A stretch of 64,000 nucleotides of DNA from Escherichia phage SR02. The position numbers and the translations under genes were made by a program. Below the pieces are notes generated by a model. That model searched no databases and had not been told where the DNA came from. It saw only the letters and a list, made by a program, of their open reading frames with translations. The DNA is taken from sequence record OQ870566.1; one strand, 5' to 3'. Positions 43,565 to 44,212 of the stretch are shown here, piece by piece. Position 1 is the stretch's first letter; every line of letters starts with the position of its first letter.

Positions 43565-44212
43565 ATGATGGCGAAGAAAACAACACCTACAAGATATCGA
43601 ATTCATGGAATTCCTATTAAATATATCTCAAACTATGAAGAGTTTTACAGAGTGAACTGGAAAGTGGTTCACAAGTTCTTCATGTACGATATCAGGGATT
43701 ATCATGAAGCAGAAGATGTGGCACAAGAAGTGCTCTTGAACGCTTGGAGATTTGTCTTCGCTAAGCAGGATGAGAGAGTCCTAGAGGATGAGAAAGACCA
43801 AGAGCATATGACTTATCGAGTCAAGAACATTATCTGGTCTATACGCTCAAATAGGCAGACTGTAGGGGACCGTCGTATCTACTCTATTCCAGAGGCTGAT
43901 ATGTTCCGTACTCCTGATATGGTGGACAGTCCTTTAGAGATTGCTATGGATAAGCAAGATTCTGTTGGTGACCCATTCATGGAATCTCGTATCTTCTATT
44001 TCTTCCAAGATTTAAGTGATACGATGGACACTCAGAAGTTAGCTAATATGTTCTCAATGATTTTCTTGGGTATTCCTCATGACCACATCCAGAAGACTAT
44101 TGGAATGTCACACGGAACTTTCTACCGTCGTTATGCGGAGTTAAAAGATCTGTATGAGTATGTGGTAGAGAAGCATTTCGATAAAGAAGAGTTTCAAGGG
44201 TTGATTACATGA
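43565..44212 (+). CDS. phage-encoded sigma-70-family (ECF-like) sigma factor
   Basis: Region 2-like [15 protein letters not shown] and region 4-like [21 protein letters not shown]. Confidence 0.7.

Follow-up and report, generated by a model that had tools for sequence, protein, structure and literature searches.

A gp36-type sigma factor, four of its promoters and a candidate divergent promoter in a phiEco32-like coliphage

Introduction

The stretch of phage DNA analysed here (64,000 nt; the window) contains a gene for a protein with the look of an RNA polymerase sigma factor, and a 9-mer, TAATGTATA or nearly so, recurs upstream of genes on both strands. The locus raised the question of whether the 9-mer is a promoter element read by the phage sigma factor, as the initial annotation had claimed, and which of the copies could act in this way. 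The features discussed below are collected in Table 1.

Identity of the phage and layout of the window

The best database match to an 8-kb slice around the sigma gene was Escherichia phage vB_EcoP_SU10 (KM044272), with 95.6% identity in DNA sequence; for phiEco32 the figure was 95.5%. This identified the window as part of a phiEco32/SU10-like coliphage (Kuravirus, Gordonclarkvirinae). Collinearity with phiEco32 extended over the full length of the window. The plus-strand genes up to about 47.3 kb corresponded to the early and middle genes of phiEco32, and the minus-strand genes from about 47.46 kb to its late virion genes. The equivalents of promoters P13 and P6 lay past the right end of the window. 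The sole tRNA gene in the window (10049-10124, plus strand; tRNA-Arg, anticodon TCT) was found in the early region, as in phiEco32.

The terminator of the convergent gene clusters, AAAGCCCTC...GAGGGCTTTT, was located at 47424-47460. Just upstream of it, 41 nt at 47366-47406 were 95% identical to about 125 Klebsiella phages of approximately 165 kb, which is probably trivial. All of the 125 Klebsiella phage matches obtained by megablast consisted of the 41-nt stretch alone, and they are unrelated to the sigma system.

Table 1. Coordinates of the features in the window
Feature	Position	Strand	Details
Phage sigma gene, ortholog of phiEco32 gp36	43568..44212	+	214 aa; 215 aa if read from the in-frame ATG at 43565
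Sigma-70-type promoter-like site	43517..43546	+	TGGACA-18-TATAAT; 11/12 consensus matches; directly upstream of the sigma gene
gp79 ortholog	23697..23945	+	82 aa; matches 9m7y_G over residues 1-82, E 5.8e-51; PHROG 8339
P68 equivalent, middle	29959..29989	+	-35 GGTAGTAGATA at 29959-29969; AAATGTATA at 29981-29989; predicted +1 29996; upstream of ORF at 30029
P58 equivalent, middle	34312..34320	+	TAATGTATA; predicted +1 ~34327; upstream of ORF at 34357
P40 equivalent, middle	41738..41746	+	TAATGTATA; predicted +1 ~41753; upstream of gene 40 (41806-42552)
P26 equivalent, late	51921..51929	-	TAATGTATA; predicted +1 ~51914; TAAGACCTA at 51944-51952; upstream of 1473-aa virion gene (ATG 51882)
Candidate seventh gp36 promoter, divergent from P40	41677..41707	-	TAATGTATA at 41677-41685; -35 GGTAGTAGATA at 41697-41707; predicted +1, A at 41670
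Conserved non-coding block, putative RNA of ~160 nt	41510..41670	-	5' hairpin; stem UUGCAGG/CCUGCGA round a swappable module; long 3' hairpin
Long hairpin read on the plus strand, then TTTTTAT	41513..41582	+	-18.2 kcal/mol, z -2.7
Exact TAATGTATA in coding sequence of phi32_21 homolog	57179..57187	-	codons Phe-Asn-Val-Tyr

The sigma factor and gp79

The sigma protein was aligned end to end by phmmer with chain F of PDB 9m7y, the phiEco32 gp36 deposited as 'RNA polymerase ECF sigma factor' (E 2.6e-145). Only one difference (R/K) was present in the 214 aligned residues. In tblastn the protein was 99.5% identical to its counterparts in phiEco32 and SU10, and it fell in PHROG 1740 (phrog_1740), 'RNA polymerase sigma factor', with an E value of 2e-45.

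In the cryo-EM structure of the phiEco32 complex, the sigma2-like N-terminal domain of gp36 binds the clamp helices through D44, E47, E49, D50 and E54 (PMC12276001). The same domain recognises AATGTA (-14 to -9), and its contacts with the -10 region are made by E79, H80, Y83, R84, W90, S91, S94 and N95. The sigma4-like C-terminal domain is bound to the flap-tip helix, and its residues R187 and Y186 read -37G and -34A, respectively (PMC12276001). Together with M138, I142, F166, L167 and F204, these are the 20 published RNAP- and DNA-contact residues of gp36, and all 20 were identical in the window protein.

A 215-aa ORF at 43565-44212 had been reported in the initial annotation, and this ORF does exist, on the plus strand. 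The gene more likely starts at the second ATG, 43568, because the resulting 214 aa match PDB 9m7y_F and a Shine-Dalgarno sequence, AAGGA, then lies 6 nt upstream. Both the phiEco32 annotation and the deposited 9m7y_F protein begin at this second methionine.

The same annotation had recognised a region 2-like segment and a region 4-like helix-turn-helix. The published gp36 structure, with its sigma2-like and sigma4-like folds, bears this out, but the Pfam models do not: Sigma70_r2 stayed below its cutoff (19.1 bits vs 24, E 0.0012, residues 25-63), and neither Sigma70_r4 nor r4_2 gave a Pfam match at E <= 1. The sigma4-like fold of gp36 has a shortened helix alpha-4 (PMC12276001), and a paper earlier than the cryo-EM study described gp36 as being without region-4 homology. 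With region 2 under the threshold and no region-4 match, the assignment of the protein as a sigma factor therefore rests on its near-identity to gp36, not on Pfam.

The sigma-70-type site directly in front of the sigma gene (Table 1) is also found upstream of the SU10 sigma gene (PMC4281155). Judged from its match to the consensus, this site would let the host holoenzyme start expression of the sigma gene.

The second protein of the phiEco32 switch is also encoded in the window (Table 1). In phiEco32, gp79 inhibits the sigma-70 holoenzyme and activates the gp36 holoenzyme (PMC12276001).

The sigma gene is flanked on one side by a macro-domain (Appr-1-p processing) gene at 43102-43545 on the plus strand (Pfam Macro, E 1.5e-10), and on the other by a gene for an SLOG/YspA-like protein at 44209-44601, also on the plus strand, for which PF10686 scored just under threshold.

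Occurrence of the 9-mer in the window

Exact copies of TAATGTATA were found at five positions in the whole window (34312+, 41677-, 41738+, 51921- and 57179-), against 0.80 expected, and none of 100 shuffles reached five. In addition, AAATGTATA was present at 29981+. The one-mismatch variants of TAATGTATA numbered 23, with 20.1 expected. They were not enriched as a class, so the signal sits in the exact copies. All six copies listed in the initial annotation were real, although two of the positions given, 41737 and 57181, were off by 1 and 2 nt (41738 and 57179).

A position-weight matrix (PWM) derived from the six phiEco32 promoters in the literature was used to score about 128,000 positions of the window. 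The five highest scores, from 17.2 down to 13.7 bits, belonged to 41738+, 34312+, 51921-, 41677- and 29981+, in that order. In shuffled windows, the fourth-best score had a mean of 12.1 and a maximum of 13.0 bits, and the real sites were clear of the shuffles at ranks 3-5.

For comparison with the structure, TAATGTATA was set at -15 to -7, the register of the cryo-EM complex. An A was then present at -34 in all five sites (the four syntenic promoters and 41677-), which fits the contact by Y186. All five also had a purine 7 nt past the motif (G at P26, A at the other four), fitting the published starts 6-8 bp downstream. The motif and the ATG were separated by 39 nt for the gene at 30029, 36 nt for that at 34357, 59 nt for that at 41806 and 38 nt for that at 51882, in agreement with the spacing of about 36-60 nt that had been noted at the outset.

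The copy at 57179 behaved differently from these five. It had been listed in the initial annotation among the motif copies, and as an exact 9-mer on the late strand, exact also in KBNP1711, it could be taken for an internal late promoter within the phi32_21-like gene. We consider this very improbable. The nine bases are part of the in-frame codons F-N-V-Y, and the changes seen in relatives are synonymous: SU7 has CAATGTATA, with a different first base, and EK010 has TAACGTATA, in which the core is broken. No exact TAATGTATA was present at the homologous place in phiEco32. At -34 there was G instead of A, and the PWM score of 10.3 bits (rank 12) was inside the range of the shuffles. The copy is probably a chance occurrence in coding sequence, and not a promoter.

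Four sites correspond to known gp36 promoters

According to PMC8948821 and PMC4331800, which cite Pavlova et al. [quoted passage not shown] These promoters precede genes 6, 13, 26, 40, 58 and 68. A 9-mer of this kind in middle and late promoters of the phiEco32 group had been mentioned in the initial annotation, correctly. [quoted passage not shown]

BLAST and sequence context against phiEco32 were used to establish equivalence. Four of the six flagged sites proved to be the syntenic P68, P58, P40 and P26, and the protein is gp36, which upholds the claim that the 9-mer is a promoter element of the phage sigma factor. Taken together, the orthology and the synteny argue that the window carries a gp36-type sigma factor and four tAATGTAtA promoters, that is, the phiEco32 system; we put the probability of this at about 0.95.

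The sites were also compared across three genera (SU7, ECBP2, EK010 and KBNP1711) whose gp36 is approximately 80% identical to the window protein. The context of the motif at 29981 was identical to that of phiEco32 P68, the promoter in the cryo-EM complex, and was kept in all four of these phages. The P58 site was exact, and followed by the same sequence, in phiEco32, ECBP2, EK010 and KBNP1711; among the four phages of this comparison, no copy was seen in SU7. The P40 site was exact in all 12 isolate genomes examined. The P26 site was exact in phiEco32, SU7, ECBP2, EK010 and KBNP1711.

We also considered whether the copies could be host sigma-70 promoters with an extended, TATAAT-like -10 element, instead of sites for the phage sigma. 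At P58, P40 and P26 of the window, TATAAT does overlap the motif (taTAATgtata), and at P40 the hexamer at 41736-41741 gives a 10/12 sigma-70 match (ATGATA-16-TATAAT). In the SU10 study, too, the middle genes were suggested to be transcribed by both holoenzymes (PMC4281155). On the other hand, TATAAT is missing from P68 (cAAATGTATA). It is AATGTA, and not TATAAT, that forms the conserved core, and phiEco32 itself reads cCATAATG at P58 and cGTAATG at P40. Finally, in vitro transcription and cryo-EM have demonstrated that gp36 reads the motif bases and that gp79 shuts off sigma-70 (PMC12276001). We give the host-promoter explanation hardly any credence, and retain the reading of the copies as gp36 sites, of which host sigma-70 may nevertheless make some use.

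For the mode of action we draw on phiEco32; what was determined here was orthology, conservation of the contact residues, motif enrichment, and synteny and conservation of the sites. By analogy, the gp36-type sigma would take the place of the host's sigma-70 on the core RNA polymerase of E. coli. The sigma2-like N-terminal domain would read AATGTA (-14 to -9) and open the DNA from -11, with the sigma4-like C-terminal domain touching the -37/-34 region. gp79 would evict sigma-70 and stabilise the gp36 open complex. Binding to the E. coli core enzyme and initiation 6-8 nt past the motif are what we infer from the phiEco32 protein, from which the window protein differs by one residue.

On this model, P68, P58 and P40 on the plus strand would drive the middle genes, including the sigma gene, and P26 on the minus strand would drive the late virion genes. 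P40 stands at the head of a run of same-strand genes, the sigma gene among them, which hints at positive feedback.

A few further sequence features were observed at these promoters. The P40 motif lies within a near-palindrome, TAATGTATAtTATACATAA (41736-41756), and an inverted copy with one mismatch, TTATGTATA (41748, minus strand), overlaps the start-site region. This near-palindrome is also present in phiEco32 and KBNP1711, and is weaker in SU7. In the P58 leader, a hairpin hiding the Shine-Dalgarno sequence was considered and rejected; its 5' arm falls before the predicted transcription start, and folding of the leader was no better than that of shuffles.

The late promoters P13 and P26 have TAAGACCTA in common at -38 to -30 (phiEco32, approximately 9078-9086 and 25991-25999; for P26 of the window, see Table 1). 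GGTAGTAGATA is shared, at -37 to -27, by the divergent copy at 41677 and the middle promoter P68. Based on these alignments, TAAGACCTA and GGTAGTAGATA could represent class-specific upstream elements that divide the late from the middle gp36 promoters.

The sigma factor and its 9-mer promoters are already known as the gp36/gp79 switch of phiEco32, which has been mapped genetically, biochemically and structurally together with its promoters. What had been flagged is correct and not new, and it adds no new biology. The gain is in annotation, in that four promoters, the sigma gene and gp79 are placed with confidence in this genome.

A divergent copy upstream of P40

One exact copy remained outside this scheme. 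Genes 41 and 40 are separated by 300 nt of non-coding sequence, in which the copy at 41677 stands beside P40 and points away from it. This copy ranked fourth in the PWM search (15.7 bits). It is absent from the SU10 promoter table (PMC4281155) and from the six gp36 promoters as given in PMC4331800 and PMC8948821. The element had been included among the motif copies in the initial annotation. It is indeed exact and conserved and has a -35 region of the P68 type, but it stands outside the six published promoters.

The block GGTAGTAGATA at -37 to -27 of the 41677 copy is identical to that of P68 in sequence and register, and thereby has the two bases that the C-terminal domain of gp36 contacts, -37G and -34A. 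The copy itself was exact in all 12 isolates and in 5 of 6 metagenome contigs. In these 17 of 18 sequences, the -10 motif and the -35 block formed a unit of fixed spacing, with variable spacer and flanks. In ES17 the unit was intact though a 47-codon ORF separates it from P40. These features suggest that the copy at 41677 may be a seventh gp36 promoter, facing no ORF and making a non-coding RNA.

The exception was a Kuravirus-like metagenome contig (ERZ1034915 NODE-75; locus L024), in which the divergent site reads TAATATATA, a G-to-A change at -11. This variant is predicted to weaken the divergent promoter, the -11 position being contacted by E79 and H80 of gp36.

The gap between the divergent 9-mers was 52 bp in the window and in MN05, and 62-63 bp in phiEco32, SU7 and KBNP1711, a difference of about one helical turn. 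The phiEco32 pair is located at 36632-36712, and that of the window at 41677-41746.

A structured non-coding block downstream of the divergent copy

No ATG or GTG was present in the first 166 nt past the 41677 copy. This interval is occupied by the conserved non-coding block (Table 1), which starts with a hairpin at the predicted +1. The hairpin was found in six sequence variants, with 97% of cells paired. Two of the six pairs had compensatory changes, and the G.U pairs were valid on the minus strand only.

The middle of the block was occupied by one of two unrelated modules, enclosed by the closing stem UUGCAGG/CCUGCGA. The first, of about 42 nt, was present in this window (41600-41650), phiEco32, SU7 and others. 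The second, of about 66 nt, was present in ECBP2, ES17, MN05 and several metagenome contigs. The modules were swapped independently of the variant of the 5' hairpin, giving a mosaic, cassette-like pattern.

The rest of the block was an invariant core of about 90 nt ending in the long hairpin. Across ten phages the core was 97% identical, vs 91.5% for the adjoining gene 40, a figure that refers to aligned positions only, with a 3-nt indel that invalidates comparison at third codon positions.

We interpreted these observations, tentatively and at somewhat less than even odds, as an undescribed seventh gp36 promoter at 41677, which would make a structured RNA of approximately 160-190 nt; it is this RNA that would be conserved in Kuravirus, Suseptimavirus and Nieuwekanaalvirus. 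Such an RNA could be regulatory, could partner the rightward transcripts as an antisense or terminator element, or could serve as a primer or activator of replication.

Alternatively, the copy may not be a working promoter at all, but a by-product of the P40 control region (protein-binding or structural DNA), with the adjoining block acting as a terminator or as a site at the DNA level, such as an origin. That the copy is missing from the six mapped promoters, as given in the sources cited above, agrees with this, as does the contig with TAATATATA. Several DNA palindromes occur in the block, along with AGGGACT as a direct repeat (twice), and its two strands fold about equally well (z -3.1 vs -3.0). 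Read on the plus strand, the long hairpin followed by TTTTTAT (Table 1) could serve as a terminator. It was not called in a simple terminator scan; from the modelled fold, it could be an intrinsic terminator that stops rightward transcripts before they reach P40.

Several observations speak against this alternative. The -10 motif is retained together with a -35 block of the P68 type, at fixed spacing amid variable spacer and flanks, and the unit survives in ES17. The compensatory changes and G.U pairs of the hairpin at the predicted +1 are valid on the minus-strand RNA only. The long hairpin has a lower folding energy on the minus strand than on the plus strand (-23.5 vs -18.2 kcal/mol). A terminator alone would leave unexplained why some 90 nt are more conserved than a neighbouring core gene. 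We regard this alternative as rather unlikely, and the divergent promoter with an RNA product remains the preferred, if tentative, reading.

Searches for homologs placed the block within Gordonclarkvirinae. Rfam 15 gave four chance-level matches only to 41510-41670 (E 3.2 to 8.4, far under the gathering scores), and no homolog of the block was found in E. coli genomes. When IMG/VR and metagenomes were scanned for the pattern of the RNA core, only Kuravirus-like contigs and GC-rich chance matches came up, and a search of IMG/VR for loci related to gp36 returned only four near-identical genomes. A 12-mer complementarity scan within the window showed no convincing trans target for the putative RNA. 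Targeted word searches of three Kuravirus papers found no mention of a non-coding RNA, an antisense RNA or an origin.

A conserved divergent promoter with a structured non-coding product is the only part of this locus that could add to knowledge. If it is real, the gp36 regulon would reach beyond protein-coding operons, and the system would gain a phage non-coding RNA or an origin-type element.

Some phage replication origins are activated by transcription, as in the T7 primary origin with its phi1.1A/B promoters and in ori(uvsY) and ori(34) of T4. The arrangement at 41677 recalls these origins, in that a phage-specific promoter without a gene behind it would read into a structured and then an A+T-rich stretch. 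Unlike the T7 and T4 origins, the A+T-rich stretch here encodes the small hydrophobic gp41 and is replaced in some relatives, and the likeness to an origin would be one of layout alone.

The gene in this stretch is a 35-aa, very hydrophobic ORF at 41392-41499 on the plus strand, a phi32_41 homolog (PHROG 24970), which overlaps the stop codon of the preceding ORF. It fills the A+T-rich stretch to the left of the block, and unrelated sequence occupies this place in ECBP2, EK010, Paul and related phages.

Comparison with other phages and sigma factors

Salmonella phage 7-11 encodes a distant homolog of gp36, SaPh711_gp47 (15% identity), and has promoters at equivalent positions, for example before the gene-40 homolog (PMC8948821). 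Its late promoters are bipartite, GTAAtg-(16)-aCTA, unlike the consensus in the window, and it has neither gp79 nor a middle class (PMC8948821). In a 7-11-like phage, only 95 nt were present upstream of the gene-40 homolog, with no divergent element and no equivalent of the block.

GenBank records label the window protein 'ECF sigma factor'. Like gp36, the Group 4 (ECF-type) sigma-70 factors consist of two domains, sigma2-like and sigma4-like, with a linker that threads the active-site cleft (PMC12276001). Unlike in the Group 4 sigmas, the gp36 promoter is dominated by the single AATGTA element, and gp36 itself departs from canonical sigma factors in helix alpha-1 and in its C-terminal domain (PMC12276001). 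The sub-threshold Pfam score for region 2 and the lack of a region-4 match are a further difference.

For SU10, the supplementary table (PMC4281155) gives identical sequences for the middle and late promoters and also lists the sigma-70 promoter that precedes the sigma gene. In the intergenic region equivalent to that of the divergent copy, the SU10 annotation shows no such copy and no terminator.

The closest parallel is phiEco32 (cryo-EM, PDB 9m7y; PMC12276001), which is like the window in gp36 (bar the one substitution), in gp79, in the promoter positions before genes 68, 58, 40 and 26, and in the contact residues and bases. It differs in approximately 5% of the DNA, in the upstream parts of P58 and P40, and in the spacing of the divergent pair, which is 63 bp in phiEco32 vs 52 bp here.
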